This document shows positions 16,540 through 40,800 of a stretch of 64,000 nucleotides of DNA, one piece after another. The notes under the pieces were generated by a model that ran no database searches, was not told the origin of the DNA, and was given only the letters and a program-made list of their open reading frames with translations. The stretch lies in IMG/VR virus record IMGVR_UViG_3300008111_000001; one strand, written 5' to 3'. Both the position numbers and the translations under genes were made by a program. Source of the stretch: a virus. Numbering within the stretch: the stretch's first letter is position 1; the number at the start of each line of letters is the position of its first letter.

Positions 16540-16585
16540 AAATAAGTGCATGGGAGGTATCTTCCATGCACTTATTTATTTTTTG
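16540..16585 (+). terminator. Terminator after sheath-tube cassette
   Basis: 17-bp stem 16540-16556 / 16561-16577 (one G-U), 4-nt loop, followed by ATTTTTT. Confidence 0.8.
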
Positions 16586-16594
16586 GAGATTTTA

Positions 16595-19000: not shown

Positions 19001-19001
19001 A

Positions 19002-19631
19002 ATGTTAACAGCTGATATTATTTTTTCTTTAAAAAATAAATACGGCAACATTTATAGTGTTAATATAAAAAATCAAACTGTTGTTTTCAGAGAATTAACA
19101 TTCAAAGAATATGATAAAATTCTTTATCTAAAAACACTAGAAGATGTTGATTCTTCTGATATTGAAGATGTTATCCTTGAATTCGCCGTAATATACCCGG
19201 AGGGCTTCGACACTATGACGATACCTCCGGGTATTGTCGCTAATCTATCCTCCGAAATATTGGATATATCTGGTTTCTTCAGCGCTTCTGTTGCTAAGAG
19301 AATTCTTGAAGAAAAAAGATACGAAGCAACTGAAGTTAAAAATTTAATGAAAGCGTTTGTTTTGGCTACTATAACATCGTATGCTCCAGAAGATCTGGAG
19401 GATATGACTTTCTCTGAATTAGCAGAAAAAGTAGCTTTATCTGAAAAGATTATAGAGATAAAACAAAATGCTAATGGTATGGAATCTACTGATTTGAAGA
19501 TTCAATTAATAGATCCTGAAGAGGAAGAGCAAAAACAGAAAATTTCTGCAGCTAGACATAATCTTTCCAAGAAAGATGGCGAAGCTGCTTACGAAGATCC
19601 TATTGCTCAAAAGCTGTGGGGCATGAAATAA
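19002..19631 (+). CDS. Tail assembly chaperone 2 (paralogue of chaperone 1 with C-terminal extension)
   Basis: LKNKYGNIY...FRELTFKEY...VIYP...GIVANLSSEILDISGF aligns with chaperone 1. Confidence 0.7.
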   Translation: MLTADIIFSLKNKYGNIYSVNIKNQTVVFRELTFKEYDKILYLKTLEDVDSSDIEDVILEFAVIYPEGFDTMTIPPGIVANLSSEILDISGFFSASVAKRILEEKRYEATEVKNLMKAFVLATITSYAPEDLEDMTFSELAEKVALSEKIIEIKQNANGMESTDLKIQLIDPEEEEQKQKISAARHNLSKKDGEAAYEDPIAQKLWGMK

Positions 19632-19644
19632 GTAGGGAAACAAA

Positions 19645-22600
19645 TTGGTTAGAGATCCAGGACCTATTCACAATCTAGGTTATAGCGTAACGTCTAGAGA
19701 CGTTCCAACTATGATTGATGAAGAAAGGGGAGATGCTCCTAACTCATCATTTATTTCAAAAGCACTAAATGATCATCCTGTTTTAAGATTCGTTTCTACT
19801 GCAGCCACCACTATGGCTTCAGCTTTTGTTTTATCAAAGCTCACAAAACAAGGTGGATTAAAATTAGCCAAGACAGTTCAAGATAGAGCAGACAGTGGCG
19901 CCAGCAGGTTTGCCTCTAATATTGTTAACGTATTTCCTAAAATTAGAAAAGAGTTAGACGAACTTTCTGGCGTTAGCCGAATGATCGACGGCAATACTCC
20001 GGATCAAATCGATCCTTATTCAAGACTTGTTTTTGAGACAGCAGAAGGCAAGCTAACTACTGGCGTTATAAAGCACACAGATCGAGGCTATCACTGGACT
20101 GCCGGTGAGATCAGAAGAAGTGGCAAGGGGTTAGAATATGAGACAGCTGGAATATGGGGTTTCCGAGAGGAGTCTCAAGCTCGTTTAGTCTCTTTGGCCC
20201 GTAGAACGGCCTATGAGCTCCCTGCAGTGTATGTAGGTCAGAAAGCTATAGTCGATCCAATTTTTGGTGGCAGAGACGATTCTAAGGTTAAATGGTACAA
20301 CCCTGTAGATGTATTGACAGACTTTGTTAAAGATTCTACGATCAACTTAGTTACAATGATGATTCCAATGGAGGTTGGCGGAGCTGCAATAGGCAACGCA
20401 AGATCATCGCTGTCTAATTTTAGATATTCAATGTCTGACCTCGCCAGGTCCACTGGATCAAGTGACCTGAAGACAAACTCTTCAAGGATGTTTGTTAATT
20501 TGGCTGACGTTATGTCTGAGGTTGGTCACGACTTAGCTGACATAACTCAAAAGGCTGTAAAGATTTCCGCTCAAACCAGCGGAGCCATTAAGGCAGCTAC
20601 CACAGAGTATAGCCAGCAAAGAATTGATATCAATGCAATTCTTTCAAGAACAAGAAATTTAAGAGCAAAACAAATATATGAAGACTCTAAAGGTTCAAAG
20701 TTAAAGAGGGCTAGAAATGTTGCGACTCAATATGCATTTGGTAATGACGCCAACGGTAACTCTGGATATTTAGATTTATTTCCTGGACTCAGGGGTGTTG
20801 GCAGCGCTGTAAGGCAGGGTGTAAATCAGTTCCGTAAGGTTGGACAAGGTTACGATGTAGTAACTAGGGCGATTGACTTTGATGCAGCAGTACAGAAATA
20901 CGGTGCTGCAAACCCCGACGCTTACAGAGGGCAATTAAAGGGTATAATAAACAATCTTCAAGCTAACTCTACCAATAGAATGTCTATTATGGCCAGTAAA
21001 ATGGCCAGAACATTTGGTGGGCCAATCGGATCAGATAGCTTTTACTCGTCAGAGTTCTATAAAGGAATGGAACAAACAGAGTATAAAAAGGTTTTATACA
21101 AATCTTTAATGGAAAAAACTGCAACATCAGATAGGGATGATTTTGCGAAAACTATAGCAAAGTTTATTGACGATATTGACATCAACAAAACAGCTATGGA
21201 GCCATCAAGAAGAGTAACTATAGGTGAAACTAAAATACTACTTGATGGCGATGAACCATTTGATGAAATAATAAATAGGTTCAAGGGAACCTTATCTAAA
21301 AATAGGGCAGATGAATTTATTCAAAAGGTTGGAAGCTCTGATGTTTTACAGCAGTCCATTATTGATGCCAACAGGCTTTTTTCTGGAGCAGAGTTTCAGG
21401 CAGCATTAAAAGCAAAAGCTAACAAAGGTTATAAAGCATTCCAAGAGCAGGGAATGTTTAAAGTGGCTGGAACAGTTTTAAAAACTAAAAGAGCAGATTT
21501 TGAAGATTTCCTTGATTTAGATAATTTGTCTTACGCACAAAAAGATTTTCTAATTAAAAGATCCGCTCAAAGATTGGGGATGAAACTCAAAGCAGCTGAT
21601 GGCAGAGATCTAAGTAGAGGAGAATTAGGCGAGTCTTTAGGTAAAGTTGGTCTTGATGTAAAAAATCTTGGTCAACTAAGAAGTTTTCTTGTTAGGGAAA
21701 AACAAATAAGTTCTGGTGTTTTTGCTAGTGGGTTTAATCTGTTAGGATTAAGACGGGCAACTGTTGATGAGGCAACCCAACGCGGATTGTTTAGTAATTT
21801 AGATGAAGAGACTCAAAGTTTTATTAATCAAATGTCTTCCAGCATGGTTAGGGCTGATCCAACAAAAACAGCTTCTAGCGTTTCTGTTCTTCCAGATATT
21901 TTTATTACAAAGACTGGTGGTATTCTAGATGTTTCTGGAATAAGGCAAACTGCAAGAAATGTAGGAAACTTTCTAGCCAATGATTTAAGAATACCTGTTC
22001 TTGGTTTTAATCCGGCAGACTTATTCGGTAAGCAGTCTTTTAATGAAATGTCTGGAAGGGCTCCCTTTCAGTTTATTCAGGGTAAAGTTTCACAGCCTTT
22101 CCTTCAAGGCGCAGACAAATCTGCTGACTTCTACTTATTCTATAGCGGTGGAAAAACAAAAGGTAAAGTTATGGCGTTTAATTATAACGTCATGGCTCAA
22201 CAGTATACTTCTAGAACCTTGGATGGAACCTTTAGGCCGCTAGCTAAAAACAGCTCACAAATGTTGACTCGTGCAGCTAGAAATGCCGCTGCAGAAAGAG
22301 ACGCCGAATCCCTTAATTCCTTAAATTATCAAGAAGGCACATTCAGAAGTAGATTTTTTTCTGGTCTATCAAGATTCGGTGTAACACCAGAAAGAGAGTT
22401 AAAATTTAGAGAAGCTTTTGATATTAACTATGATCAACCAAACTCTATATTTGGTTTTATGTCTAGATTTTCCAGGAGAAATATTGATCCAGAAAATCCT
22501 AGATTTTTTGCACAAGTAATATCTGGGAGAGATATTAATACAAAAGCGGGAACGCTGAGAAAAAACATTGTTAAAGACGCAGACGGCAATGTCCAAAGAG

Positions 22601-25600
22601 TTAATGTAATTAACGCTGATACTGGCGAAGAAATGGTTTCAGAAAAAGCTTTGTTGGAAGCTTTTGAAGGGTTTAGAAGAAGGGCATTTGGAGCTGGTTT
22701 TTCTCGACGTGCAATGAGAGCGATAGAGGATGCTGATCCGTCATTAGCTACGTATTCTGGCGTAAAAGTAAGTCAGCTTCAGAATGTTCAGGAAAAAATA
22801 GATTTTGCAAATGTGTTGATCAGAGGTGTCGACAGAGATGCAAATATTTTAAGAAGACAGGGCATAGACGCTGCTACATTGTTCCAAAGTAGAGAGAGAA
22901 TTAGGAAGGTATTAGAGGAGTCAGACTTGTTATCTGGTTCTCAGATACGGTCAGTTAGCCCAACGATTCTTACAAGAGAAGACCAATTAACAGACGAACT
23001 ATTTAAGTTTTTAATTCAAAGAAACGAATTAGTTTCAAATAGCACTAGGCAAACATTCGGTCAAAATTTTATTAAGATAAACCAAGCTCTTGCAAATATA
23101 GCCAAGGAAATGCCTGCCGGTGAGTTGGCTGAAGCGCAAGCGGCAGCATTTGGAGCATTAACCAACCTAAACTCAGTAAGGGCAAACAGATCTTTTCTAA
23201 AAGAAATTGAAGTTCAAAGAAGAGCTCTTGCAAATGTTATAGAGTCTTTAGAAGGTTCTCCGGAATTAGTTCAGCCATTTTTATCTGGTTCAATTGAAAG
23301 AGTTGGAGAAATAGGTAAACTTGGTTTAGCTAAAAAATTATTATATCCATCATTAAGCACGGCTTCTTTTAAAATATCGCATTTAGCAACAGATCCACTT
23401 GGTTCAGCTACTGGTCCTGGCGCTGACGTTTTGTTGGTTCCCACTTTTGGTAGTGTATTTGCCAGGAATCCTGTTGGAGCATTAAAGAGTGTTGCAGGAA
23501 TAAATACATACAGTAGTCCAGAAAGCTATTCAAACCTATCTGCTGCAGTATCTCATGGTGTTGAAAGACTTAATAAATATTTTGGCACAGTTGGATTACA
23601 GTTAGATGTAAATCAATATGGTTCTCCGTTAGATCTTTTTGCAAGGGGCATGGTAGGCAAAAGAGTTCTGCCACTCTATGCTGGCGGATTAGCTTTCATG
23701 ACCGCTGATAGAACAATTGGTGGGATGGTCAATGAAAAAGATGCAAGAGGAGAAAGGGTTTATTCTCCATTTTTTGTTGGGGCAGCGACAAAAGCTGTAG
23801 GACAAGTTCATGCATTAGGTGCTGGGGTTATGCCTGGTGGAATGAGCTATGAAGAGAAAAAGGAACAGCTTTTTGAGGGAGAGGTGCCGATAAGGCAGGG
23901 TCGTTTCTGGCCATTGGGTAATACTCCATTTATGGGCGGAAAGATAATGTATTACAGGCCAAGTATTTATCGCAAGATTGAAGCTGGCTCAATGTTTACT
24001 TCTGATACATATGGTTCCCCTATAGAAAGAGCCTTATTCTATACGGACATATCTCCACTACGTCCATTGGATCCATATCGCTTTGAAAGAAAGCATTATG
24101 AAGATAGGCCATATCCTATAAGTGGAGAATATTTTTCTGGTCCGTTTGGTCCACTAACTCCCGCACTAAACGCCACAGTAGGCAGGATATTAAAGCCTCA
24201 AATAAAAATGCACGAGCAAGAAGTTTCGCAAGCTTTGTCTAATTATGCTCCAGCAGGACAATCTGGAGCTTATGATGCAAGCGCTTACTTGCGACAAGTT
24301 TCCATGCCCATGTTGCCCGGACAGGCAGCTCAACAGCAATTTGGGCAAGCTTCCATCGGTGGATTAATACAGGGCGGAACCCCAATTATGTCTATGGGGA
24401 TTTCTTCTGGTGGACCTGGCCCAGGAATACAAGCATCAGCAAACGCAGAGTTGGCAGGCAGGGCGGGAGCATTAAACACCGCCAAGTATTCCACCATGCA
24501 GAGCATAGGACAGATCAATGGTCAGTATACCCAAATGGCATATGGTCCCCCAAAAACTCCAGGTATGATGCCTCCAAGAATAGTTGGTGCGGGATCACCG
24601 ATTTCTGTTGGCGATCCACAGGTGCAACTTCAAGATTTTGGATATAGAACTCAAGAAGCCTTAGGTATCTATGGTTTCGCTGGTGCCGCATTCAGAGAAT
24701 CTTTTGGATATGGTCAAGGAGATTTTGAACCACAAAGAGCAGTTTTGCAATCTGCCTCCAAGGCATATGGTATGAGTAGGCAGTTCTGGGATTATAATCT
24801 TGGCGGACTTGGTGACGTTCCAATGTTAGGTGGAAGAAATTTTGGTTCAATAGAATTTTCTGAAATAACTAGAAGATTTATACCAAAAGAAAGAACTGGT
24901 GTTGATTATCTGAATCCAATACAAAACACTATGGGCAAACAATATCCATTTTTGCCAGGGCCAGAATATTATTTAGATTTCACTAGAGGAGATCCTTTTA
25001 CCAAGGTTCAAGAAGGTGAACTCCGTTTGCCTGGAGTCGCTTACGAAAGATTGAATCAACTGCATTCAGATGAAACTGGAAGATATGGTTTATTAGATCA
25101 ATTTAAAATACTTGGAGATGTTGCCCCTTACTCTAAGCAGTATAGGTATTTAGATAAAAAAATTAATAGTTATTTAGATGATCCATCAGAAAAGCTGCAG
25201 GCTGACAGTATTAGAGAAAGAGTAGCTTCTATACAGCAGAGGGAAACTTTCTCTGAATATAGTCATGTCGGCAAAACTGCTCAAGAAGCTGGCACTAACC
25301 CTCTTGTTCACAATCTATCTAGAGCGGCAGAATATATTGCCCACAGAGATACTTTTATAAATAGAAAGTTTATCAATAAACAAACGGCAGTGGAGGACTG
25401 GGAAAGAAACAATGTTTACGGAGCTACATTCCCAGAGTGGCAGAGACCATTCGAAAGCTTCATAGAACCAATGATTAACAAAGCTGCTGACAGAAATCCA
25501 TTAGCAGCATCTGCAAGCTTGGCTGCTGCAGGACTTTTTGCGGGTAGAACGCAACCAGGAAAACTGGTCATGTCTGGCCTAGGTGCCATTACCGGATTAG

Positions 25601-26340
25601 CAGCTTCTACAGGGGCTAATATTCAAGAGGCAATAACTGGAGAAAGATTTATTCCAACGGAAAGAAAAAAGGAATTAGCTCTTGAAGAGTATTCTGATAT
25701 TTTAAGCTACGTAAAAAATACAAGATTAGCTAACATGGCGGAATCATCGGGGGACGCAGCAGCAGCTTTTCAGTTTAGATCAGCAGCAAAAAGGACAATG
25801 TATGGTGCGCCAATAGAAGATATTGGCACAGGCAAATATGGAAGCGATGTAGAGTCTCTTTCTTTGGCTATCCCTAAAAGAAAAAGGGAGCATTTTAAAG
25901 CAATGATAAATGCTCCAGAAGAAGATAGGGGAAGAATACTTTCTACGGCTGGAAGATTGGAAAGAAGAATATACGAGGCAGCGTGGGGTATGCCAGTTGA
26001 AAAACGTCCAGAATTAACAGATTATTTTAGTAGGCATGAATTACCCGATGAGGGATGGGAAGGTTGGCATCCAAATACAAATATGGATTCTGTTAAAATT
26101 AAAATAGGACAGCACATGGGTCTTGAAATGTCTCAAATGGGTTACTATCCTCAACAGATAAGAGAAGCTAATCTAGCCAATCCCAGCTATCCTCGGTTTG
26201 ATTATTCTTCAGATTCTAATGCAGACGTATCATATAGATTACGTTCTTTAATGAATGGCATGGGTGTTACTGGTTCAGTTACTCCGGTCATGAATCCGTT
26301 TGGTGGTCAGCAAATTGACATAAGTGCAGGGGTTAGGTAG
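19645..26340 (+). CDS. Tape measure protein (2231 aa, TTG start)
   Basis: Directly follows the chaperones; largely helical with several hydrophobic Gly/Ala segments; AGGGAA RBS before TTG 19645. Confidence 0.7.
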   Translation: MVRDPGPIHNLGYSVTSRDVPTMIDEERGDAPNSSFISKALNDHPVLRFVSTAATTMASAFVLSKLTKQGGLKLAKTVQDRADSGASRFASNIVNVFPKIRKELDELSGVSRMIDGNTPDQIDPYSRLVFETAEGKLTTGVIKHTDRGYHWTAGEIRRSGKGLEYETAGIWGFREESQARLVSLARRTAYELPAVYVGQKAIVDPIFGGRDDSKVKWYNPVDVLTDFVKDSTINLVTMMIPMEVGGAAIGNARSSLSNFRYSMSDLARSTGSSDLKTNSSRMFVNLADVMSEVGHDLADITQKAVKISAQTSGAIKAATTEYSQQRIDINAILSRTRNLRAKQIYEDSKGSKLKRARNVATQYAFGNDANGNSGYLDLFPGLRGVGSAVRQGVNQFRKVGQGYDVVTRAIDFDAAVQKYGAANPDAYRGQLKGIINNLQANSTNRMSIMASKMARTFGGPIGSDSFYSSEFYKGMEQTEYKKVLYKSLMEKTATSDRDDFAKTIAKFIDDIDINKTAMEPSRRVTIGETKILLDGDEPFDEIINRFKGTLSKNRADEFIQKVGSSDVLQQSIIDANRLFSGAEFQAALKAKANKGYKAFQEQGMFKVAGTVLKTKRADFEDFLDLDNLSYAQKDFLIKRSAQRLGMKLKAADGRDLSRGELGESLGKVGLDVKNLGQLRSFLVREKQISSGVFASGFNLLGLRRATVDEATQRGLFSNLDEETQSFINQMSSSMVRADPTKTASSVSVLPDIFITKTGGILDVSGIRQTARNVGNFLANDLRIPVLGFNPADLFGKQSFNEMSGRAPFQFIQGKVSQPFLQGADKSADFYLFYSGGKTKGKVMAFNYNVMAQQYTSRTLDGTFRPLAKNSSQMLTRAARNAAAERDAESLNSLNYQEGTFRSRFFSGLSRFGVTPERELKFREAFDINYDQPNSIFGFMSRFSRRNIDPENPRFFAQVISGRDINTKAGTLRKNIVKDADGNVQRVNVINADTGEEMVSEKALLEAFEGFRRRAFGAGFSRRAMRAIEDADPSLATYSGVKVSQLQNVQEKIDFANVLIRGVDRDANILRRQGIDAATLFQSRERIRKVLEESDLLSGSQIRSVSPTILTREDQLTDELFKFLIQRNELVSNSTRQTFGQNFIKINQALANIAKEMPAGELAEAQAAAFGALTNLNSVRANRSFLKEIEVQRRALANVIESLEGSPELVQPFLSGSIERVGEIGKLGLAKKLLYPSLSTASFKISHLATDPLGSATGPGADVLLVPTFGSVFARNPVGALKSVAGINTYSSPESYSNLSAAVSHGVERLNKYFGTVGLQLDVNQYGSPLDLFARGMVGKRVLPLYAGGLAFMTADRTIGGMVNEKDARGERVYSPFFVGAATKAVGQVHALGAGVMPGGMSYEEKKEQLFEGEVPIRQGRFWPLGNTPFMGGKIMYYRPSIYRKIEAGSMFTSDTYGSPIERALFYTDISPLRPLDPYRFERKHYEDRPYPISGEYFSGPFGPLTPALNATVGRILKPQIKMHEQEVSQALSNYAPAGQSGAYDASAYLRQVSMPMLPGQAAQQQFGQASIGGLIQGGTPIMSMGISSGGPGPGIQASANAELAGRAGALNTAKYSTMQSIGQINGQYTQMAYGPPKTPGMMPPRIVGAGSPISVGDPQVQLQDFGYRTQEALGIYGFAGAAFRESFGYGQGDFEPQRAVLQSASKAYGMSRQFWDYNLGGLGDVPMLGGRNFGSIEFSEITRRFIPKERTGVDYLNPIQNTMGKQYPFLPGPEYYLDFTRGDPFTKVQEGELRLPGVAYERLNQLHSDETGRYGLLDQFKILGDVAPYSKQYRYLDKKINSYLDDPSEKLQADSIRERVASIQQRETFSEYSHVGKTAQEAGTNPLVHNLSRAAEYIAHRDTFINRKFINKQTAVEDWERNNVYGATFPEWQRPFESFIEPMINKAADRNPLAASASLAAAGLFAGRTQPGKLVMSGLGAITGLAASTGANIQEAITGERFIPTERKKELALEEYSDILSYVKNTRLANMAESSGDAAAAFQFRSAAKRTMYGAPIEDIGTGKYGSDVESLSLAIPKRKREHFKAMINAPEEDRGRILSTAGRLERRIYEAAWGMPVEKRPELTDYFSRHELPDEGWEGWHPNTNMDSVKIKIGQHMGLEMSQMGYYPQQIREANLANPSYPRFDYSSDSNADVSYRLRSLMNGMGVTGSVTPVMNPFGGQQIDISAGVR

Positions 26341-26342
26341 TA

Positions 26343-29300
26343 ATGTTAGGAAAAATAGCTAGCTTCCTAGAAAGACGAAAGCAAGAGATTCCTGAATATG
26401 AATCTTTTACTGACTATATGGCTGCGTACCTGTCTCCTTTGTCCCCAGAAAAGCAGGTTAGGGCAGCTAGAAGAATAATGACTAAAATACCTAGTGGTCG
26501 ACTAATGGAACCATTTGTTGATCCAGCTGATAATATTTTAAAATATAGAGCATCTTACTTTGATCCAGAAGAGCAAGGCAGAAAGGTTTTCAATAGCGTA
26601 GACGACGCCATAGAGTATTTCTCTGCCCTGCATCTTACTGAAGTTTACAGACTATCAAAAGATGAAGTTCCAGTGGTTTATAGGGGTTATGGTCAGGTTA
26701 TAAGGGAGATAGAAAAGGTCGCTAGGGAAAAGAAACTTTTTGGAATAGAAGATCTTGAAATGAACATTGCCATCCATAAGGGTGGGCTTGATACTCAACA
26801 GGGCGCTGAGGCACTAAAAGCATTTTTTGATGCACAAAAATCAAAAGGCTACGGTTTACTTTTACCTACGGACGATGGTGGTATTGCATTAAATTTAGTT
26901 GCTACAATCGCTGGAAAAAAACAGACACTAGGATTAGATCAAACCTTAGAACTAATGCAGGCAGCAAATGTTTCGATCATAGATCCAGACGTATTGGAAG
27001 AAGCTATGAAATCTGGAAATAAAAAACTGTCTTCTTTAATTCAAAAGTTAGATAAAAGATTACGTGGCGTTTTGTCGCCAAGAGAAGTGTCCGTTTCTGG
27101 TGATGCACTAAGATCAATATTAGATGACGTTGGTAAGCCTGGTCTATCATTTGCTGATTCGATTCTTAACACAGATCCAGTGTTTGAGGCATTGGGGTTA
27201 GCTTTAGATGTTGATACGTTGAAAAATGTTTCAAAAATGAAAAACTCGGAAAAAGCCGCAGACGCAGCACAAAGAATAAGAGAGTCTTGGATGATTGGTG
27301 GCCAAGATAGATCTAAAGATTTTTATAAAATAATTTTAGATGAAGTAATTCAAGGGCAAAGCGGACCAAATAAAAAACTATTAGGTAAAGAAAGTCAAAT
27401 ATATTCAGATGTCAGTAGCTATTTGAAAATTGCTATGCAAGACGCCATAGATAGTGGGGAGGTGGATATTACTGTCGGAAAATATGGTACGGACGTTTTA
27501 AAAAGTAAGTTGGGATTATTAAAAGAGAGTTTAGAAAAAAGCGCAGCTGGTAACGAAAGTGCACTAGGAGAAATAGGTCAAAAATTTAGCATCATTGACG
27601 TCCTGCTTGATGAAATAGAAAAGGGATCAGACGGTTCTATGTTGATAAACGATCCGTACACTAGGGCTATTCAAAAAGGTTATCAGTCTGAAATAGATGA
27701 ATTGAACAAAAAATACGCACAGTCCACTAGTAGGCTAGAGAAAGAAAATATTCTTTTAAAGAGAATGGAAGTTGAAAGGTCAATGCGTCAGTTAGATGAG
27801 TCTAAAGGTTTGTCTCAAATAACTGTTCGAGGAAACGTTGTTTTTGATGCAGGGGATCAAACACGTCCTGCCAGAATATTTTCTTTAAAAGGCGCAGCAA
27901 TGAACGTTGAGTTTACTGGAAGATATACAAAATATTCCATCATTGCGCCAAAGGCGACTACCAAAAGAGAAACTAGAATATCTGGATTAACAGACATTTT
28001 AAACCTTTCTGGAACAGGTGAATCTAAGGGCGCAGTCTATGCAGACCCCATGCTTGACGCATTCCATTCAGCAGTATTTGGCTCACCTCAATCGCAACAG
28101 TTAGGTAGAGAGTATTCTGCGGCGTTGCAAAAAGAGTTAAATGAAATGTTAAAAGCAAACAGGATTGATGAAGGCGGAAAATTTTATCAATCTTTGTTAA
28201 AAGCTACTCAATCACAGTCTGAAGACATATTGGAGACCCAGCAGTTCTCACAAATGATGCACAGGACTATGGCAGAGGAAATACTTGAAATACATAGAAG
28301 CGGCGTTCCGTTAGATCAACATCCTAGGGCTATGAATAGAATTTTGGATTTTGCTCAAAAAGAGTTCTTTAAGATCAAAAAGGGAATTCCTCTACCAGTA
28401 ATGCCTGATGTTTACAGATTTGCTTTAAATGCTGAGTCCACTCAGGTTGGTATATCCAGTGGGAGAATGTTCTTAGATATGGCCGATCAAAATATTGCAA
28501 TGGATGAAGGATTTAGTCTTAGCACCACTCGTGTCAGATTCTCTAATCACAACCTATTAATGAGCGAAAGGGACGTTATTAGATTCCACCATGCTCTTGG
28601 TGGATTCGACCTTGACGACAAAGGCTTGCCGGTTCTTGGAACATATATGTCTAATGGTAAAAGACGTTTGGCTATGGCAATGGCTCGCCAGCCTACGGGT
28701 GCAGGTGAAATGATTGGCTTTGTTCGCTTTAATGATATTGAAAGTTATCAAGAGCTATTTGGGCATAACGCGGACTTCATGAAAACGTTAGGTCAAATGA
28801 TTTCAGATGAAGAGGAGAAGTTAGCGTATCTACAAGGTTCGGGTAGCTCTCCCACTTTGCAAAGATTAAATATATTAAAGCAGAATTTAGAAGGCAAATT
28901 TACATCTGAAGAAATGACACGAATTGATCAGTCTGGCTTATTGGATCAACTTGAGGATACGATAATAGATGTTAGAGATAGATTATATGGCGGAAAGGCT
29001 AGAACTTTTAATAGAGCATATTTTGAATCATTAGGTGTATTAAAGCAGGGCGCAAGTGCGGTTGATTTTTTTGCTGGGTCTAGATTGGTGGATTTTGCTG
29101 GAGTTGATCCAGGTTTAGCTTCTCTCGGTTTTCAAAAATTAAAAACTGAGGTCATGACAATGAATCTTGAAGATGATGTCTTTAAAGCTTTGGAACATCT
29201 TATGACAGATCAGCAAAAAACTCAACTAGGTGCAATTAGAAATCAAATACAAACCTTAAAAGCTCCAGCTTTTTCGGGGTTGCCAATACCAGGTTCCATT

Positions 29301-31412
29301 TACGATGATTCGACACAGCTAGCAGTACTGGAGCAAGCTCAAAAAGATTTAGATAAAGCTTCAAAAGATTTTTATAAAACGTTAAATAGTTTTGGATTAG
29401 ATAAAGACAAAACGGCCATTGCTATGAACAAATACTATCTTGAAACAATGGAAAAAGCTTCAACGGAAAACGCTAACAATCTTGGTAAGCATGTTAACAG
29501 GGCTACTGTAATTGCAGATGGTTTAAATCAATTCGAGAAAGCCTTTGGGTCTGATCAAGCAATCAACGATGCCCTTAGGCAAAAGGGCCTATTAATAGGC
29601 TTGCCATCGTCAGAAACCGCAGTGGACATGACTCAAACATTTACTTCCGGAAGATTAAAGTTAAAAATGGACGCTGAAGCCGCTGCCGATCTTAGATACG
29701 GTATGGATATTTTTAGAAGAATGTATGGAAATAACTTTGATTTGGAAGAGCACGGCGCAGAAATTGTTAGCAAGTATGGAGAAATGTTTGGTTACCTGCA
29801 GCACAGGGGGGACCAGCAATTTGTTCTGGATAAAGCTTTAATTAATTTCGGAAAGCTAAACCAAGATGACCTCAGATCTTTTGCTGAATCCTACATAAAA
29901 GGCGCTGAAGCAAGAATGGCTGAAGGAATAAAAACTGATGAAGATTTGACTGCGCTAAAGAATCTGTTTTCTAAGGGGGATGCTCCTAAAAAATCTCAAG
30001 TGATAAACGCACTAACAGATATAGGAGTAATTGGTAGAGGTAATCTTTCTAATACAATCGAAGTTGCCCAGCAAGCCGAAGATAGCATTAATGCAGCAAG
30101 AAAAAGATTTGGCGATAACATGAAGGAGTTAAGAGATACATTAACTTCTGGTATGGGTAAAAATGTCACTGAAGCACAGTTATCCGCAAAAGCTATTTTG
30201 GACGCAAATCAGGATATTTTTGATGAATTGATGCAAGCTAATGCCGCCTATAGAGAAACGCAAAAAATTCTTAAAGAAGGAATACAGGATGGTCAATTTA
30301 TCGATTCTGCTAGAAGAGCAGAATTGACTGTGGGCTCTGATCGAGCTAGGATAAGAGCGGAAATATTAAGAACTCAATTAGGTGATAGTTTCTTGAGCGG
30401 AATTAATGAGGTTAGATCACAGAGAGCTTTAACTGGATTTAATCTAATAAATGCACTTCAGTTGGAGGCTTTAGATCGTGGAATGAGCTCATATGTTTTT
30501 GAACAGCTAACAGATTTAACAGAGAATTCAAATGAAGAGTTTGCTAACTTTTTTGCTAGAGTTAATGCAGCTAAAAGAAATAAAGCAGCTTATACAAAAG
30601 CTACTTCAAATATGCAAGTTAGAAATATTGTTGACAATTTCTTTAATGCTACCTCGTCTATGAGAGATGTGCTTCTTAGGGATATTTCTGGAGGAGGAAT
30701 TTTAGATCTTTCTCAGTATGGTGATGTTTCAGGGATGTTTGCAGACTTGGGTGTTGATATGCAACAGTTGGGCCAGGCTGTTGGAAAAGGGGTTGAAGAC
30801 ACTACGGATGAAAATATAAAAATTATATCCAATGCGATAAGAGCTAGAGCTTTATATGAAAGAGATATTTTGGATCCAGCAGTAGATGACTTTTTGAACG
30901 GTCAGATATCTGCAGATAAAGTGGTTGGCAAGAAAGACAGACCTAAGGGTATAGTTGGAGATGTTTTAAGGGAGCTTGATGAGCAGTCTCCATCAAATGT
31001 AAATCCATCTAAATTTAAACGTTTAGATATGGATTATTTGACAGAACAATTTTCTAAGCCTTCCGTTCAAAAAACGGCTATCGCAGCTGGCCTTTTGATA
31101 GCAGGAAGCTTTCTTTACCAAAATAAAAAAGATAAGACAACAGAAGACGCAGCAGGGCCACCACTGCTTCCTGGCGGATCAGCATATGAGCAAGGATACC
31201 CTAGTCCCAATGTTTCTGTTCCACAAATTGGTGGTGGCGGATATTCTTCCGGAATGAGCTATAAGGTTTCCTTATATGGTTCGAGGCAAGATGTTGAAAG
31301 GTTCCAACAAGCAGCTTCTGGACTTACTAATGGATCGATTAACAGTACTATGTATAATAGGATCCCCAGTGTGACGTCTGATCCATATCAGCAGCTCGCT
31401 AGCTCATTTTAA
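26343..31412 (+). CDS. Putative virion single-subunit two-barrel RNA polymerase-like protein with C-terminal membrane helix
   Basis: Ordered motifs resembling YonO/cellular RdRP: KLDKRL....S (aa 235-245), SDGSMLIN (D430), ITVRG..LKG..IIAPKATTK (R496, K516, K541), LGGFDLDDK (D756, D758, D759), MARQP (R782), NLGKHVN....IAD (1047-1059), TAVD (D1095). Confidence 0.6.
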   Translation: MLGKIASFLERRKQEIPEYESFTDYMAAYLSPLSPEKQVRAARRIMTKIPSGRLMEPFVDPADNILKYRASYFDPEEQGRKVFNSVDDAIEYFSALHLTEVYRLSKDEVPVVYRGYGQVIREIEKVAREKKLFGIEDLEMNIAIHKGGLDTQQGAEALKAFFDAQKSKGYGLLLPTDDGGIALNLVATIAGKKQTLGLDQTLELMQAANVSIIDPDVLEEAMKSGNKKLSSLIQKLDKRLRGVLSPREVSVSGDALRSILDDVGKPGLSFADSILNTDPVFEALGLALDVDTLKNVSKMKNSEKAADAAQRIRESWMIGGQDRSKDFYKIILDEVIQGQSGPNKKLLGKESQIYSDVSSYLKIAMQDAIDSGEVDITVGKYGTDVLKSKLGLLKESLEKSAAGNESALGEIGQKFSIIDVLLDEIEKGSDGSMLINDPYTRAIQKGYQSEIDELNKKYAQSTSRLEKENILLKRMEVERSMRQLDESKGLSQITVRGNVVFDAGDQTRPARIFSLKGAAMNVEFTGRYTKYSIIAPKATTKRETRISGLTDILNLSGTGESKGAVYADPMLDAFHSAVFGSPQSQQLGREYSAALQKELNEMLKANRIDEGGKFYQSLLKATQSQSEDILETQQFSQMMHRTMAEEILEIHRSGVPLDQHPRAMNRILDFAQKEFFKIKKGIPLPVMPDVYRFALNAESTQVGISSGRMFLDMADQNIAMDEGFSLSTTRVRFSNHNLLMSERDVIRFHHALGGFDLDDKGLPVLGTYMSNGKRRLAMAMARQPTGAGEMIGFVRFNDIESYQELFGHNADFMKTLGQMISDEEEKLAYLQGSGSSPTLQRLNILKQNLEGKFTSEEMTRIDQSGLLDQLEDTIIDVRDRLYGGKARTFNRAYFESLGVLKQGASAVDFFAGSRLVDFAGVDPGLASLGFQKLKTEVMTMNLEDDVFKALEHLMTDQQKTQLGAIRNQIQTLKAPAFSGLPIPGSIYDDSTQLAVLEQAQKDLDKASKDFYKTLNSFGLDKDKTAIAMNKYYLETMEKASTENANNLGKHVNRATVIADGLNQFEKAFGSDQAINDALRQKGLLIGLPSSETAVDMTQTFTSGRLKLKMDAEAAADLRYGMDIFRRMYGNNFDLEEHGAEIVSKYGEMFGYLQHRGDQQFVLDKALINFGKLNQDDLRSFAESYIKGAEARMAEGIKTDEDLTALKNLFSKGDAPKKSQVINALTDIGVIGRGNLSNTIEVAQQAEDSINAARKRFGDNMKELRDTLTSGMGKNVTEAQLSAKAILDANQDIFDELMQANAAYRETQKILKEGIQDGQFIDSARRAELTVGSDRARIRAEILRTQLGDSFLSGINEVRSQRALTGFNLINALQLEALDRGMSSYVFEQLTDLTENSNEEFANFFARVNAAKRNKAAYTKATSNMQVRNIVDNFFNATSSMRDVLLRDISGGGILDLSQYGDVSGMFADLGVDMQQLGQAVGKGVEDTTDENIKIISNAIRARALYERDILDPAVDDFLNGQISADKVVGKKDRPKGIVGDVLRELDEQSPSNVNPSKFKRLDMDYLTEQFSKPSVQKTAIAAGLLIAGSFLYQNKKDKTTEDAAGPPLLPGGSAYEQGYPSPNVSVPQIGGGGYSSGMSYKVSLYGSRQDVERFQQAASGLTNGSINSTMYNRIPSVTSDPYQQLASSF

Positions 31413-31422
31413 GGTTAATTAG

Positions 31423-31869
31423 ATGATATTAAGTGTTAAAGATCAAAACAAAACTTTAGCCTCCGCTGCCAAACAGCCAAAAGATACATCCCATAGAAGC
31501 ATAACCGCAAATAAGTATGCAGCGAAGATAGCTTCTAGTAAAAGTCCTTCTAAAAATGTTGTATCTGAGTCACGTCAAAAAATCCAAGCATCGGGACAAT
31601 CAGATAAGGTCCGAGGTTCTTTTGAGGGCTTAGAAAATTCTTCGCCTGCTCATATTCTCATGGATGGGAGTGGCTATAGTGGCAAAAGACATCAGAAGGC
31701 CAGATATTCTAAGAATATTAATACTAAATTAGGTGGTAATTTTAACTTTAATTCTTTTACAAAGGAAACAAAAAGTAGTATAATAGATAACTATAGTTCT
31801 TCCACTATGAAAGATTCTTCTAGTGAAAGATTGTCTAAGATTATTAAGAATAACATGGCATTTGCCTAA
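31423..31869 (+). CDS. Small basic Lys/Ser-rich hypothetical protein
   Basis: ORF with AAGG upstream; strongly basic, low-complexity composition. Confidence 0.45.
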   Translation: MILSVKDQNKTLASAAKQPKDTSHRSITANKYAAKIASSKSPSKNVVSESRQKIQASGQSDKVRGSFEGLENSSPAHILMDGSGYSGKRHQKARYSKNINTKLGGNFNFNSFTKETKSSIIDNYSSSTMKDSSSERLSKIIKNNMAFA

Positions 31870-31877
31870 GGTGAGAT

Positions 31878-34800
31878 ATGTCTAATATTGAGCAATCAGA
31901 AAATGAAGAAGAGCAGAATTTAAACTCATCTGATCCGTTGTCATACGATTACAGTAGCAAAGCTTTTGTAAATATGATAATGATTGGCCCACTTGGCTTG
32001 ACTAATAGCCTGGATAGCATTACGGATAATCCAGCAGAAGCTATTAAAAGATTCTTTTCTTTAACAAGACCAGATGTCATTCCTGATATAGATACTTTAA
32101 AGGATGGTCAGGCAGAAGACTTCAAGTCGGACCGGGACAATTATTCAAATAGAATAGAGGCTACCACTAGAGTGTTTACATCTGGTGGGACTCTGTCGTC
32201 GCTTGTTGACGACGGTGCATTGTTAATTAACTTATATAAAAGATTAGAATCTACAGGTTTACTGTATTTGGCTTCGTTTGCTTATGAAATAAGTGAGTTC
32301 GGCAAGAGGAGGCTGCAAAATGTTTATATGACTCAAAAGTCATTAGACTATCATGTAGATCCAGCAGTAGATACTGAGTGGCTCACTCTTTTAAGTCAGG
32401 TTGTTTATAATCTCCAGGCAGATCCTATATCTTTTTCTATTATAAATCATTACCTTCCCGGTTTAATGACATTTGTCTTTGATGCCCTAGCTGTAACTGG
32501 AGATTATTCAAACGCAGGAAAAGGCGGTGGAAGCGAAGACACTCTTAATAGAGAAGAAGACGCTGTTGAAGAATTAGAAAAAGCTTTTGGTGTTGCTCCA
32601 AATGGTGAACCAATATTCACTATGGCATTTAGGATTAATGGTGGAAATACTTCTGCAAGAATTCGCAAAGCGATAGAAGACTTCCCATATAGAGCAAATA
32701 TACCTCCTAAGAAACCTGATATTTTTCATTTACGTTTAGGCGCAGCAAACTTTTATGTACCGCCTATTTCCGTAACAGTCAACTCTGCATTCAAAACTGG
32801 ATCTCTTACAGGTGGGGCAATCAGACAAAGAAACACGCCAAAATATAATGCAGGATACAAAGAAACCTCAATTTCATTAAGATTATTTTTTCCAAACTAT
32901 GAAGAAATATGGGGCATGCACATAAGCGATGCTTCATCAATAGATCTTAAAGAAGGTTTTAAAATAGATTTTAAGAATTCTGGTGATTCAGAAGAAAAGA
33001 TAGATAAGTTCTTATCTTCTTTGCGTGGACTAATAGCAGCTTTTAAATACTCCCCGATACTGCCAATAAAAAATGATTACATAAACTCTGTTCATGGAAT
33101 CTCGGCGGTTGCACTATCTTCAATGTCTATTTCTACAGTTCCTAATTATCCATTTTCTCTGATGGTTGATCTGGAGCTATTTGCCTATAATCACAAGCCA
33201 TTCTTGCCAATGATTAAAGATTTTAACCAAGCAATTCACTGGGGCAAATACAGACAGTATATGGGCAAGGCTGCCGGCGCAATGCACAAATATGCCAATG
33301 AATCATTTTTGCTGAAAACTTCTGATAATAGAAACTCTGAAGAAACGCAAGATAATACTGGCATCATCCGCGATGGTTCTTATATATATCAAACGAGCCC
33401 TTATGGCGCATCCCTGACAAGTGAATCTGCTTTAGTGGATTCGTCTTTGACAGATGATACCTTGGAATTACTAAACACATATGAGGATGATGTTTTATAT
33501 ACTAATATAATTTCTCAATGGCGAGATGGTAGTAATTTAAGTTTTTACACTCCCGCTGAAACACAAACTAAAATGTTTTTACCTGACACTTCTTCATTTA
33601 GAAGTGAACAGGAAAAAATTCTAAATCAAGAAAGCTATGGGTTGTGGAATGGCTTATTGGCAAAATTTGGGATTGAAATTTCTCCTAATACGCCAGCAAT
33701 TCGTGACTTGGGTCAAATGAAGTCTCTTTCTTTAGAGCCAACATTCCCCCCATCCACAAGGACACTTGTTCGAGAATTCGTAGATATAGTTACCGCTGGC
33801 GTCAGCCAAACGGACTATAGAGATGGAATCTATAAATATAAAATGCAATCGTTTATTTCAAGCAATTTGACTAAACTGACTGCAGAAGAAAAAGAATGGC
33901 TTTTAAATTATTTAACACCAGATGAAATGCCATTTGATGCAGATTATTTTACTCAATATTCAACAGAGGGATCATATATATTAAATGATCCAGTTTTTAA
34001 TAATGAAAACGATAATGTAAGTTTAAACTTTGTTAAAAGAAGTATATGGAATTCAGTTCTTAATTCAGGAAATGTTATAGATACTTTGATTGTCGAAGAG
34101 ACCGAAAGAAGAAAAATTTTAGGTACTGAATCAACGCTTCCCGATGAAGAAAAGATTCGTCAACAAGTAACCGATGCTTTCTTAGTTTCGCTTTACAATC
34201 GCTTTTTTTCTGATGGTTACGTTCAAAATTTAATGAATGCTAAACGTTTGAAAGAAGGAGATTATCACTTCCAGGAGTGGGAAGTTCCGATGAATCGAGT
34301 AGATCTAGATCCTAAGAAAGCTATAGTTAACGGTGTTAGCGTAAGCCTTGGAAATAATCTTGCAAAACTACAAGTACAGATGCAAGAAGAGCCTACTTAT
34401 CAATATATAGGTGGAAAAGATTCGTATATCAATATATCCATGACTGTTTTTGGTGAAAGAGAACTCTATAAGATTAGAGCAATCTTTGACCATATCAATA
34501 GTTTGGCAAGACTAGAGCATTCTACTGGTGTTATTGGTTTCTTAGGAATCAAAAACATTATTAGCGCACTATGTGGAATTAAGTATGTTATCCCACTTAA
34601 CTTTAAAGTTGATACCATACCTAATTATCCACATGTCTATAATGTTCAGTTAAGTTTTGTGGACTTTGATATATTTCAGCAGCAACGAGAAAAGCTATCA
34701 TCAAAGCAGCAACGCGATTTTATTGATCATTTTGGATCAAAGAGAAATCCTTTCCTAAGAATTAAGCAATTGTGGGGAGCATTTAATGCATACCCCGATA

Positions 34801-37800
34801 TGCCGCTGGAAGTTCGCGATAAAGAAAATGAAGTAGTTGGCAATTTAGATCCAGATTTCTATTTCAGAAGTTTTGAAATGTTTGATAAAGATGTCATTAA
34901 TAATTTTATCTACCAACCAGATATAACAAAAGATTTTAAATTTGATTATAGTGATGACTGGGCAAAAGTTGGAGACGCTCGTGCTATAGAAATTAGAAAA
35001 AATCAAGTCAAAAATAGGATCACAGATTTTCTTAGAAGATACGCCTATAGGGATGTAGCAAATGAACCATTTGCTGCAGCACAAAGGGCAACTAATAATA
35101 AAACATTGATTAATGAAATAATAGACTACGTTAACACTAGTGGTATAAGTGTTCATAATTTTATTAGCCTTTTCAAAGAAGTAGTGCAAGCGGAAACTTC
35201 TGAGTTTGAAACTTCGCAAAAGCAAGCTCTATTAACCGATTATATTTTCATTGCTGCTCAATCAACTGAAGATAGTCCAGTATTTGATGAGGTTTCTGGA
35301 GCTGGATATTCTGTCGGGAACATTAATTATTCTGGTGCTGAAACGTTAAATCTAATTAAACAGGTTTTGACAGATTCTCATTTAGCTAATGAGACAGAGG
35401 TTAGTTTTAATCCAGATGAAGTAGATTTCCATAAAGTTATATATATGATTCCGGCAACAAATCCGCAAGAAACTGGATCTGAATCAGAGATACCAGCAAT
35501 GATGCAATCCGCATTAGGTACTCATTTTGGTTATATCAATAAAGATAATGGAAGATTCTACCTAACAGTTGATGGCTCGAATGTTCACATAGATGATAAT
35601 GGGGATAAAAGATTATCAGAAAATCAAATTGAAGATACACAAACTCCAGATAAAGGATGCACAAACACTCTTACTGGAGTTGAAGGTGTTCAATCATTGG
35701 ATAAATATCAAAAAGCATATGATGGCTCTTTTGGCGGTCACATACAAAAAATGATGAACGACGTCCAGTATAGAGACATATCCGGAAGAATGATTAGAGC
35801 ATTTCCTACGTACATGCTGTGGCTCATCGATGAAGGTGGTTTTTTTGCTGGCGTTAAATTGTTTGACAATTTCTACGGATTACAATCCATAGTTGACTTC
35901 TCTGTTGTTTCCTCAGAAGATCTTTTGGGTGATACCCTAATATTTAGGGTGTCCAATATGTATTCAAAGTTGACTACACGTCCTTCAACTGAAATTTTTA
36001 ACTCTAGAGACAATCAGCCAAATGATGCTCCCATAGATTTTACCCAAGGAATTGAGTCTATCTTAGATAGAACTCTAAATATAGCTAAAAATATTGTTTC
36101 TGGTATGAGAAATGACTATGTAGTAGACATAAATAATATTAGATTAAAGCCTGGTGTTCGCGTACATTTGAGAGTTGGTTATGGGGCTAATCCAAACTCT
36201 CTACAAACAGTTTTTAATGGCGTAATAACAAACGTTGAGCAAGGTGAAATTGTAACAGTAACTGCACAGTCTGATGCTATTGAGCTTGGAGCAATAGTTA
36301 ACTCTACAAATAAAAAGGGTGACACGGGTAAGATAGATGGTGGCGTAGATACTGGAATGTATTTGTCGGAGCCTAGAGATCTTATGGTCAGACTGCTTTC
36401 AATGGGGGCATCTAGATTTAGAGAAGCTTTTGCTAGAGCTACAAATGGAACGGTATTTTCTGAAAACAGATTTGGAATTCGTCACTTTGGCTCGACACTA
36501 TATGAGCCTTTAAGCGATTCAGAAAGAGCAAGGGCAGACGGAATTAGAAATGTTGTAGCAAGTGTTTATTCTAATCTTGGTCAAGGAGATGTTGGCGGAG
36601 CTGCCAACGCAGCGTCATTTAAATTGGCAACTAATGTATTCCAAAGAAATCCCGTCAACGCATTTTTTGGGGATGGAAAAATTATGACCAGTATGGGTCA
36701 ATTAATGTCCAACTTCTGCGCAGAAGTTGATTTGGAAATTTTTAAAAGAAATATTTATCCAGGAAACGGAACAGGTTTTGCTCAATTCCTTGGTGGCGAT
36801 ATAGATGACGGATGGTTAACCGCTTCTTCATTAGTGGAAGAAGACGACAAAAAATTAAAAGGACAGGCATACCTTGAAAGAGGCGTGGACAGATCGTGGA
36901 ATAGATTAATAGTAGAGGCTCAAAATGAGTCAGTTTCAGCAAGAACAGCTATTGCAACGATGACTTCCGGTAATCAATTAGTGTCCGCTGAAGGCAGAGC
37001 TAATGCAACAAAGAATGTATTGATGGGCGGATTGGCTGGTTCTATAGGTCTCATCCCTGGAGTGAGTTTTGCTGCTGGTGCAGGTCTTTCTGGTGGCGGA
37101 TTATTTGGCTTATTAAGAGGAAGAGGCGGCACTAACCTTTTCAGAACATTGGGAATTCTTGCACCGAACGCTGATGATGATTTGCCCGGTTTTGATGAAG
37201 TTTCATTTAGGGCTCAAACATACATGAGAACGGTATGGGATCTTTTCCAGGTATGCGCTAGGTTGCTACCTAATTATATTGTTGCTATTAGGCCCTTCGA
37301 GGACAGGTCCACTATATTCTACGGTAAACCTCATTGGCTTTATACTTCTGGTGTCGTACCGGTAACTACTGGATTCCCTAGTACCGAAAGAGGTTCGGAG
37401 TTAGAATTGCCAGGGTATCCAAGGTACCGTTCGCCGGACGAAGATATTGAAAATATTATGAACAATATTAATAGATCAAGTAATACATTAGCTGATTACG
37501 AAGCATTCAAGAGATCCAATGAATTGTCTGACACAATGGCAAGTTTAGCCAGCGATCAACTAAATGCCGAGGGGATATATAAGCCTACAGCATTTTTGAA
37601 AGAAAAGTTAATTAACTTTAATTCACCATTGGCTTCAAGTTTTTCTGAAACACAAGAAGATGGCTCAACCAGAATAGTGGCAAAACTGCCAGCTGTTGTT
37701 GGATTAACTAGAGTCGGATTCCATCTTCCAGTTGGAGACCCAGCTACAACTATAGCTCCAGCAACAGAGTCACACGCTCAGTTGGATAATCTTCCGCCAA

Positions 37801-40800
37801 GATTTAGGTACCCATTTTATACTATTAATGAAACTGTCATATTAGACACAACATCTTATACAGTTAGAGATGGCGGAGTTTTTAAAAACGCAGCAAGTCA
37901 TTTTAAGGATATTGGGAAATCTGGAAGAAAGTTTTTAGATAATGAGGGCGAAGTGCCCATGGACGCTGAAGAGTTTGAGGGTTTTGTAAATGAAGCAATG
38001 GCAGAAGACAGAAGGTCTTTTGGTGGGGCAACATTTATGGCAAATATGTTTACCCTACTTCAGTATGAAAGTAAGTTTATATTAAATAACGATTTAACAT
38101 TAGTACCATCTTCTGGGGTTCTAGAGCTGGACCGTCCATTGGGATTTTCAAGTTTTATAGACAATATAGTGGACGTAGATGGTTTATCTTTTATCGGCGG
38201 CGCAACTTCAAAGTATGTAAGAATGCCCTTGCCCTCAGTCTATGCCAATAGGCCTAGCATATCTCTTGATCAAACAGCTTTGTCGCAGTATTCAGTCACA
38301 TCTTCTGAGGCTAATCGGAATGCAGATGATTATTCGTTTGAGTATGAATTAACAAATCAAATATCATATGAAGAATGGGGTTCGCCTGGAGAATTACCCG
38401 CTTCCCAGCAAACAGCAGCTGAAGCAGAACAATTCTATATTGCTATGAGATGGCCATATAATCCAGGTAATGATGACATTAACGTTTCCGATGAAGCTAT
38501 AGAAAAATTCAAAGAAAAATATGGATTTAGCGATTTATATGGAACAGTTGAAGATTATAAAAAGAGAAAAGTTTTAGTTTATAGTCCTAGAACTGGTAGG
38601 GCCGTTGTTTGTGCTCCAGCATATTTCTTGTGGGGAGAGGAAGATGACGGCACTGCTGCAGTTGTTTCGCCTGACGCCGCATGGTATTTGGGCAATTTTG
38701 TATCTAGGAATTTAAATTTTAAATATATTGCTGATGGAGAAGAAACAAGCATATTGGATCAGCTGCCGTCATGGATTAATACTACAATAAGTGCAGCTAG
38801 TGCAGTTGGTAAGTTTAGCCTTGATGTAATTGCTTATGGTGCAAAGGTTTTGCAATTTACTAGTGCTCCACTTGCTATAGCTAATAAAATAGTCGATAGA
38901 TTAAATATATCTCTGTTTGGTGGTGAAGACGAATTAAACTATGAAGACGAAAGTGGTCTAAGCATAAACCCACTACCAGTAGAATGTCTTTTTGCTTTTG
39001 TTCCAGATGATGTTCCCGTAGGTGTCATATCTTCCGCTGCAGCTCCTGTTAAAAGATTTTATGAAAGAGGAGCTGCATCACTCGACGCTAGTATGATCCT
39101 TGGGTTTGGAAACTATACGATGACAGAAGATGGTCAACTTTCCAAGCTAACAGCAAGACGAGCTACTTCTCAAGACTTAAGAAATGAACTAGGGGGAGGT
39201 ATTAGTTCAAGATTTGTTATTTATGATGATGATATGGTTAATCCTCAAAACGTCTTCTCAGAATGGGTTCCTGTAAATGCGGAGATAGCTTCTAGTAGAT
39301 TTGATTTTGGCGGTAACGCTTTGGCAGTTCCAGATGGACGAGACAAACCATTTATAGGGTACTTCAACGCTCTATTGGATGCTACTAATTTCAATGATAC
39401 TTCAGAAATAGACGGTGCTCTGGGAGGTGCTGCTGCCGATCTAGTTGGGAATGAGCAATTATCTAGAGCATATCTATACAATGTTCTAGATGAAGAGTTG
39501 GCTTCAACTGGTGACGTAGATAGCGCTAAGGGCAGAGCTGCATTTTTAAGTGTGTACGATCCACTGGATTCAGTTGGAGTTGAGGCTAGGTCTTATTATG
39601 ATGAAAATTTTGACCCTAACGTATCAGTTATAGCTGGTGATGGTAGAAATTTGAATGAAGCTAATGACATATGGGATCAATTTAGATTTGGATATCACAC
39701 ATATGATAGCGTTAAAGCTGTATTTGCAAGAATTTACGGAATGGATCCAGATTCAATAGATCCATTCCCCGAAGAGTTTTCTAGAATGTTAGGATCGTCA
39801 ACAGAAAACTCATTTAGTAATTTTGAAGATTCAAATATCCCGATTGCTGGCCTGTCTAACACTGAAAACACGGCTGTAGATGAACTGGCCATTTTGTTGG
39901 GCGCGGACTACTTTAATATACCAAATAATCCACAATTAGGTGGTCAAGGAGTTCCAATAACAAACGCTGCTGAAAGAAGAAACGCAGTAGAGTTTATAAG
40001 AAAAAATTATATAGATTTAATAGCATCAGAAAATGAATCAGACGCAGGAATTATTCAGTACTTTAACTCTACTATTGCAGATTCTCTTAATGGTATTAGG
40101 GAAAACTTTTTTGAGTCCGGAGTTATTAATACAATATTAGAATACGCCTTAGAGAACACTGAAAACCCTGAAGAAGCAATCTCTTTAAACGAAAAAATTA
40201 AAACTCCAAAACAGCTATTCTTATTGATGGTCGGACTTTTTAGGCAGAAACTTTGGAGTACAGCATACGGTAGGGCGTGGCTTGTGTTGAAACCCAATCG
40301 TAAGAGAGGTCTGATAACCAGTGGCGGAGGTGGCTCTGAGGGGCAGTGGTCATTTAAGCCAATTGACAGAGTGTTTGAAGCATTTATTAATCCATATGGC
40401 GAGTATGCTAAGAATGACAACAAGTTTCTTGGACTACTAGTATCAACAAAAGCTGAGGGTACTGGTGCGACAACATTTATTTCTGGAACGCTAGAAGATA
40501 TTGGCAATTTCTATGATAGAAATATCGGACCAATAATGACGGCAATAGGCGATGGTCTTTCTGGTTTATTGGGAATGTTTAAGATGTCGATGATGCAGAT
40601 GGGTTATGCTATTTCTGAAGTTGGCAACTTTAGTAAGCAGGCTCATATATTGAACAAGGTTCTAAATGACTCTATCTACTATTCACTAGGAAGAGAAGGT
40701 ACGCTTCTTAGGGCCGTAGACAATCCGTTTACTCGTGAATATGGTGAGCCGGTTTTGGAAATTAGGCAGCCTTTCCAGAGAATACATTATCTAAGTTCAT

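Follow-up and report, generated by a model that had tools for sequence, protein, structure and literature searches.

A lineage of large uncultured myoviruses with a highly diverged candidate two-barrel RNA polymerase in its tape-measure slot

Virion delivery of two-barrel RNA polymerases (RNAPs) has been shown experimentally for crAss-like podoviruses, for one Thermus siphovirus, in which the enzyme is fused to the tape measure, and for the multisubunit enzymes of phiKZ/AR9-type jumbo phages. Here we describe a gene of 1689 amino acids (aa) at 26343..31412 on the plus strand of the window, by which we mean the whole 64,000-nt stretch of DNA that was analysed, representing the structural half of a large uncultured tailed phage (IMG/VR record IMGVR_UViG_3300008111_000001, our G000; 98.6 kb, ~47% complete, with nearly all genes on the same strand). 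We consider it fairly probable, with an appreciable margin of doubt, that the gene product is a nucleotide polymerase of the single-chain two-barrel kind, much diverged and most likely a DNA-dependent RNAP, which would be built into the virion, ejected and used to transcribe the first phage genes. The candidate polymerase part spans aa ~110-1170 and is followed by a variable helical stretch (~1200-1500) and a conserved C-terminal module.

Among the closest described systems, gp66 from phi14:2, a crAss-like phage, is a virion-packaged two-barrel RNAP (PDB 6VR4), a capsid or muzzle cargo of a podovirus, and has a canonical DxDxD loop where our candidate has DxDD. In the Thermus phage P23-45, gp96 is a virion RNAP joined to the tape measure protein at the latter's N-terminus (PDB 8H2N; Chaban et al. 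2024, PMC10770324), and both its ejection and its role in early transcription have been demonstrated (PMC10770324). The candidate has no sequence similarity to gp96; it belongs to a myovirus rather than a siphovirus, is 1689 instead of 5002 aa long and reads FDLDDK at the loop where gp96 reads DFDGD, and neither a metallopeptidase in the candidate nor a second, non-virion paralogue in its relatives was detected. QDE-1 and plant RDR2 are polymerases of eukaryotic RNA interference, and YonO of SPbeta is their phage relative (PF05183). By comparison with YonO the candidate is twice as long, with large insertions and a tail-module C-terminus, and the Gly of DxDGD is deleted. A cultured relative, Bacillus phage 0305phi8-36, has a YonO-like polymerase, orf99, kept elsewhere in its genome, unlike the tail-slot gene of the lineage described here.

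The family to which the candidate belongs is large. A word-indexed metagenomic search gave 18 homologues at 22-88% identity, 164 family loci are present in IMG/VR on contigs of up to 216 kb, and an exhaustive hidden Markov model (HMM) search of 1.84 billion representatives yielded 259 clusters at 50% identity. When 29 homologues were aligned over aa 1-1200 (identity to the window protein down to 19%, mean column identity 29%), only 33 of the 1200 columns proved invariant, and these are essentially the motif residues pointed out in a preliminary description of this DNA, which had recognised six blocks in the order of YonO-type polymerases and had made their conservation among homologues a touchstone of its reading. 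All six blocks are found in place, and each holds residues that are invariant across the 29 homologues. KLDKRL begins at aa 235 (27045..27059; these and all following feature coordinates are on the plus strand) within a helix at aa 226-244 and contains the invariant K235-x-x-K238-R239; SDGSMLIN (aa 429-436; 27627..27650), with D430 and G431 invariant, resembles HTDGCGMI of YonO; and SQITVRG..LKG..APKATTK (aa 491-541; 27813..27965) contributes the invariant R496, K516 and K541. In the acidic loop LGGFDLDDK (aa 752-760; 28596..28622), L752, G753, F755, D756, L757, D758, D759 and K760 are all invariant, as are R782-Q783-P784 and E789 after the ensuing hairpin (28686..28709), an element which looks family-specific. 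The helix at aa 1046-1068 (29478..29546) starts with NLGKHVNR, in which G1048, N1052 and R1053 are invariant, resembles NIGEISNN of YonO and is a candidate bridge helix, and ETAVDMTQT (aa 1091-1099; 29613..29639), with invariant D1095, is a candidate start of the trigger loop. The motif observation is confirmed and is far from chance.

Neither the Pfam nor the PHROG library matched the 1689-aa protein, and Pfam searched at E <= 10 with all 29 family members returned no polymerase family, the YonO/RNA-dependent RNA polymerase family PF05183 being unmatched; the relatives of YonO, by contrast, do carry PF05183. Searches of the PDB by phmmer and by the family HMM gave noise only, tblastn against 50,697 deposited phage genomes found no match to the 1689-aa protein, and profiles of the core and of the C-terminal module retrieved nothing from the five nearest cultured relatives (Moorella MTATph1, 0305phi8-36, KLEB27-3, WH1 and ME3). 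No paper describing the family was found in the literature, and the FDLDDK loop is absent from the alignments supplied with Chaban et al. (PMC10770324). By these searches, the family is closed and unannotated.

The structure of aa 1-1200 was predicted with AlphaFold2 using the alignment of the 29 homologues, and the resulting model is a compact alpha/beta multi-domain structure (mean predicted local distance difference test score, pLDDT, 77.6; predicted template modelling score, pTM, 0.76). An alpha/beta domain is predicted at the N-terminus (aa 1-210; 26343..26972), in which, from aa 111, a succession of helix-strand-helix-strand-strand-strand appears to resemble the N-terminal motif shared by single-chain RNAPs (PMC10770324); all structural alignments to RNAPs begin at aa 102-111. 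Long helices at aa 405-486, ahead of the first beta block, provide a candidate duplex-binding helix. The first beta-rich block (aa 491-556; 27813..28010), which we read as barrel B, displays QxTxR496, K516-G and K541, and is joined by a helical connector (aa 569-674; 28047..28364), probably in the clamp-connector position by comparison with PMC10770324, to a second beta-rich block (aa 676-795; 28368..28727), read as barrel A. The latter holds PDVYRFAL..E698 (R692 and E698 invariant), FRVSNH (R732..H736), the acidic loop and a beta-hairpin; in the model two short helices lead to the GGFDLDDK loop, after which come the hairpin and the last strand. Further downstream are more helices, the long helix 1046-1068 and a strand-helix element with E1091 and D1095. 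The core at aa ~110-1170 would then follow the usual order, from the N-terminal motif and long helices through barrel B, the connector and barrel A to the candidate bridge helix and candidate trigger loop. One subclade has the gene divided between two open reading frames (ORFs), the break falling after aa ~820 (L030:8954-13607, L037:8924-13718, L040:8990-13760), leaving both barrels in the first piece and the bridge-helix region and C-terminal module in the second; this split is probably real because it is common to several independent contigs. Other splits (L059:9536-14369 and L057:9374-14630) lie in one contig at aa ~699-731, inside the second barrel, and in one near aa 1350.

Foldseek comparison of the aa 1-1200 model with the PDB gave nothing significant (best E-value 0.12); in its top 30 rows QDE-1 has the highest probability, and QDE-1 chains and P74 gp62 recur. 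VIA-align, run exhaustively over 48,161 representative chains, ranked four RNA polymerases high, most of the other listed rows aligning no more than ~125 residues, chiefly with small helical bundles, and the longest of them 193. All five solved families of single-chain two-barrel RNAPs appear in the structure searches, and nothing else does so with a long alignment. The predicted model agrees with the overall fold of the two-barrel superfamily, having two barrels with a connector, a candidate bridge helix and a candidate trigger loop, superposable on solved members. The barrels folded alone (aa 486-830) gave a poor model (pLDDT 61), with which Foldseek was uninformative and the VIA search weak, RDR2 and QDE-1 being the only long rows; in the ESM Atlas the shape search stayed at a template modelling score below 0.2 and the feature search was without usable match.

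The acidic loop is a different matter. D756-L-D758-D759-K does not conform to the canonical DxDxD signature of the superfamily: it keeps three carboxylates, but without the canonical spacing. The form DxDD is found in 142 of 149 family representatives, and among the 150 listed representatives no relative clearly has DxDxD at the loop. Compared with FDNDGDK of YonO and DFDIDK of gp66 the loop is one residue shorter and keeps the following Lys; it can be read as that element minus the residue between the second and third Asp. Since the loop is one residue shorter than FDxDGDK, the carboxylates for the catalytic Mg would be kept but differently arranged. Some 20 residues ahead of it, R732-x-S-N-H736 stands where RxPxH is expected.

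At the sequence level, the evidence linking the candidate to known polymerases is weak. No significant sequence or profile similarity to a known two-barrel member was found, and hhalign against a 34-member alignment of the gp66 family and an 18-member alignment of the YonO family returned probabilities of 0.2% and 0.1%, respectively. The core-only alignment with YonO, which is not significant, is collinear and pairs K516 with K271, R732 with R492, H736 with H495 and K760 with K540, as well as D756/D758/D759 with D535/D537/D539 across a one-residue gap and ETAVDMTQT with IDFAKT. Its score of 18.4 compares with a mean of 17.6 and a maximum of 23.7 in block-shuffled controls, and its identical conserved pairs, seven in number, were reached in 8 of 60 shuffles. 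As the core alignment does not rise above the shuffled controls, the motif pairing is not counted as evidence. The chain that can be written for the candidate and YonO, namely SDGSMLI/TDGCGMI, SQITVR..KG/SFMVR..KG, PDVYRFAL..E/PDLYAFCE, FRVSNH/LRSPHL, GFDLD-DK/QFDNDGDK, LGKHVN/IGEISN and AVDMTQT/IDYAKT, is a consistent reading and not a statistical result. The known two-barrel families are themselves also without significant mutual similarity outside the acidic loop (PMC10770324). The proposal of the preliminary description that this is a single-chain two-barrel RNAP is thus supported in part, by the invariant motifs and the predicted fold match, but not by sequence or profile similarity or by a canonical DxDxD.

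The non-canonical loop, together with the lack of a family assignment from any sequence library, could also point to a different enzyme that employs the acidic loop together with the basic residues in another reaction, for instance a nuclease, a nucleotide cyclase, or an ejection enzyme active on the cell wall or membrane. The structure searches, however, gave no match of any length to nucleases, cyclases or cell-wall and membrane enzymes, and the order of the motifs fits polymerases, and we regard this explanation as very improbable.

What role a polymerase might have here is suggested by the position of the gene. The large terminase has its nearest relatives in Moorella phage MTATph1 (38% identity) and the group around Bacillus phage 0305phi8-36. 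The tail module of 0305phi8-36 consists, in this order, of sheath and tube, the two-gene chaperonin gp143/gp144, gp145, gp146 and gp147, where gp145 and gp146 are virion proteins by mass spectrometry, gp146 was assigned as the tape measure by Hardies et al. mainly on tail length (PMC2147016), and gp147 is a T4 gp27-type hub with cell-wall hydrolase domains (PMC2147016). Four tightly coupled ORFs, of 2231, 1689, 148 and 3704 aa, lie in the window between the tail-tube genes and the baseplate. Upstream of them, two genes in the tail-chaperone position (184 and 209 aa; 18446..19631) take the place of gp143/gp144. The 2231-aa protein (19645..26340) is a homologue of gp145 (blastp 2e-49, 1e-36), and the ATG of the candidate polymerase sits 3 nt past its stop, the two being translationally coupled. 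The 3704-aa baseplate hub protein (31878..42992) is a homologue of gp147 (phrog_20474 6e-122; blastp 2e-24). Because its neighbours are the homologues of gp145 and gp147, the candidate fills the slot of gp146. The gene had earlier been placed next to the tape measure; by synteny it occupies the tape-measure slot itself, between the gp145-like protein and the gp27-type hub, and either it or the gp145-like protein may be the one that sets tail length.

The order of tube, 333-aa gene, two chaperones, 2231-aa gene, candidate polymerase, 148-aa gene and hub is kept in all 29 of the related loci, and within this strictly syntenic module the candidate is always the most diverged gene (16550-42992 compared; loci L001-L060), being for example 35% identical in L007, where its neighbours are 60-72% identical, and 25% in L020, where they are 45-68% identical. 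The likeness to gp146 extends to the fast divergence and to the conservation among relatives of the C-terminal end only, as just the last 60 residues of gp146 align with its nearest relative (PMC2147016). No similarity between the two proteins is detectable by BLAST or profile search, and gp146 is without a DxDD or DxDxD motif. A resemblance of their C-termini noticed by eye was dropped as unsupported by either search. In the candidate, the C-terminal module (aa 1575-1689; 31065..31409) comprises a short hydrophobic helix, an invariant GPPLLPGGSAYE, SYKVxLYG and TTMYNRIP..DPY; these ~110 residues are the best conserved part of the protein (40-59% identical), and C-terminal-only matches among the homologues have 43-52% identity. 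The module is not common to the neighbouring giant proteins, its hydrophobic helix did not qualify as a transmembrane segment when hydropathy was scanned, and we regard it as a candidate docking or membrane element.

Lying between the tail chaperones and the baseplate hub, the gene has the position of a tape measure, and the protein could be that, or another structural or ejection protein of the tail lumen, and nothing more, its likeness to RNAPs being fortuitous or due to an exapted fold, and its conserved residues serving assembly, metal binding or another non-polymerase role. Tape measure proteins are expected to be extended and mostly helical, with a length matching the tail, whereas aa 1-1200 are predicted to be compact and alpha/beta. 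The exclusive long matches to the five solved RNAP families, and the invariance of residues such as polymerase active sites contain (three Asp, Lys and Arg), likewise argue against a purely structural protein, which we consider unlikely, if the most substantial of the alternatives.

If the protein is a virion-delivered polymerase, the carboxylates of D756, D758 and D759 would hold the catalytic metal opposite R496, K516 and K541, the basic residues of the other barrel. Through its conserved C-terminal module the protein would become part of the tail or virion in the manner of a tape-measure or ejection protein; at infection it would pass out together with the DNA through the contracted tail and transcribe the first phage genes, as P23-45 gp96 does. 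In this chain we infer catalysis, template, packaging, ejection and timing from an observed family, its invariant motifs and synteny, and from a predicted fold; incorporation into the tail or virion is proposed because the gene combines the tape-measure slot with a conserved C-terminal module bearing a short hydrophobic helix. The argument for packaging here is one of gene position, and neither YonO nor P23-45 gp64, which share this fold class, is a virion enzyme (PMC10770324), such that a true two-barrel polymerase could be made with the late genes and function within the cell without virion delivery, for example in late transcription, priming or other RNA synthesis, or could be packaged in the head and not the tail. 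This we find rather improbable, given that the gene is coupled within the tail operon between homologues of virion proteins in 29 of 29 loci, that an enzyme produced solely at late times would need to be carried along to start the next cycle, and that no other RNAP or sigma factor was detected.

The last point draws on four near-complete relatives (G001-G004; 85-100% estimated completeness, 180-216 kb), which have one copy of the family each, one of these copies being split in two. In none of the four was the YonO family, the beta-prime catalytic domain (PF00623) or sigma-70 region 2 (PF04542) matched, the positive controls having worked for both Pfam searches; a search for T7-type RNAP (PF00940) also gave no match but was without a valid positive control and is uninformative. 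The lack of other RNAP or sigma matches fits, as weak evidence, a lineage that would depend on the candidate enzyme alone. On the strength of the model, the phage probably carries its own transcription enzyme.

The remainder of the window contains recognisable genes for portal, major capsid protein, tail sheath, tail tube and baseplate wedge. Directly 3' of the polymerase-like gene there is always a basic Ser/Lys/Asn-rich protein, here of 148 aa (31423..31869), present in every locus at 33-96% identity; it is probably disordered and may serve as an accessory factor or in tail assembly. The 3704-aa hub protein is about twice the length of gp147 of 0305phi8-36 (1903 aa) and has hydrophobic segments at aa 883-907, 1713-1737, 3260-3286 and 3592-3615. 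The tail-tube homologue (16550-17392) matches phrog_9206, labelled 'major head protein', a label that seems to derive from the product line given in RefSeq for 0305phi8-36 gp140/gp141, the note to which reads tail tube; this is a propagating annotation error. In an 826-aa protein (7763-10243) a head-decoration-like region (phrog_2647) is joined to a C-terminal region matching tail-fibre families. Outside the window, at ~95.9-98.2 kb of the source record (L068:4589-6855), five or six copies of a GC-rich hairpin recur every 417-754 nt, each with a UUCG or GAAA loop and a T-run followed by GAGGATAGACC, the ATG coming next in the copy read. This cassette, a terminator-like element joined to a ribosome-binding site, lies between short genes on the strand opposite to the structural genes, in what looks like an early region with unusual punctuation; any link to the candidate polymerase is speculation.

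Should the proposed reading hold, a polymerase fused to or co-located with a tail-lumen protein would have arisen more than once, here in a single-chain version unrecognisable by sequence and belonging to a widespread lineage of large uncultured myoviruses. It would explain how transcription starts in phages without other visible polymerase or sigma factor, would give annotation pipelines a new family to name, and would offer a natural test of how far the universal DxDxD metal site can be rearranged. A bolder proposition, which we hold to be doubtful, is that the DxDD enzyme is the only RNAP of the whole ~180-216-kb contractile-tailed lineage and doubles as its tape-measure or tail-lumen protein, with a loop geometry unseen in characterised two-barrel polymerases. 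In that case the polymerase injected by a contractile tail would run the early programme independently of the host enzyme, perhaps helping to draw the long genome into the cell by transcription.
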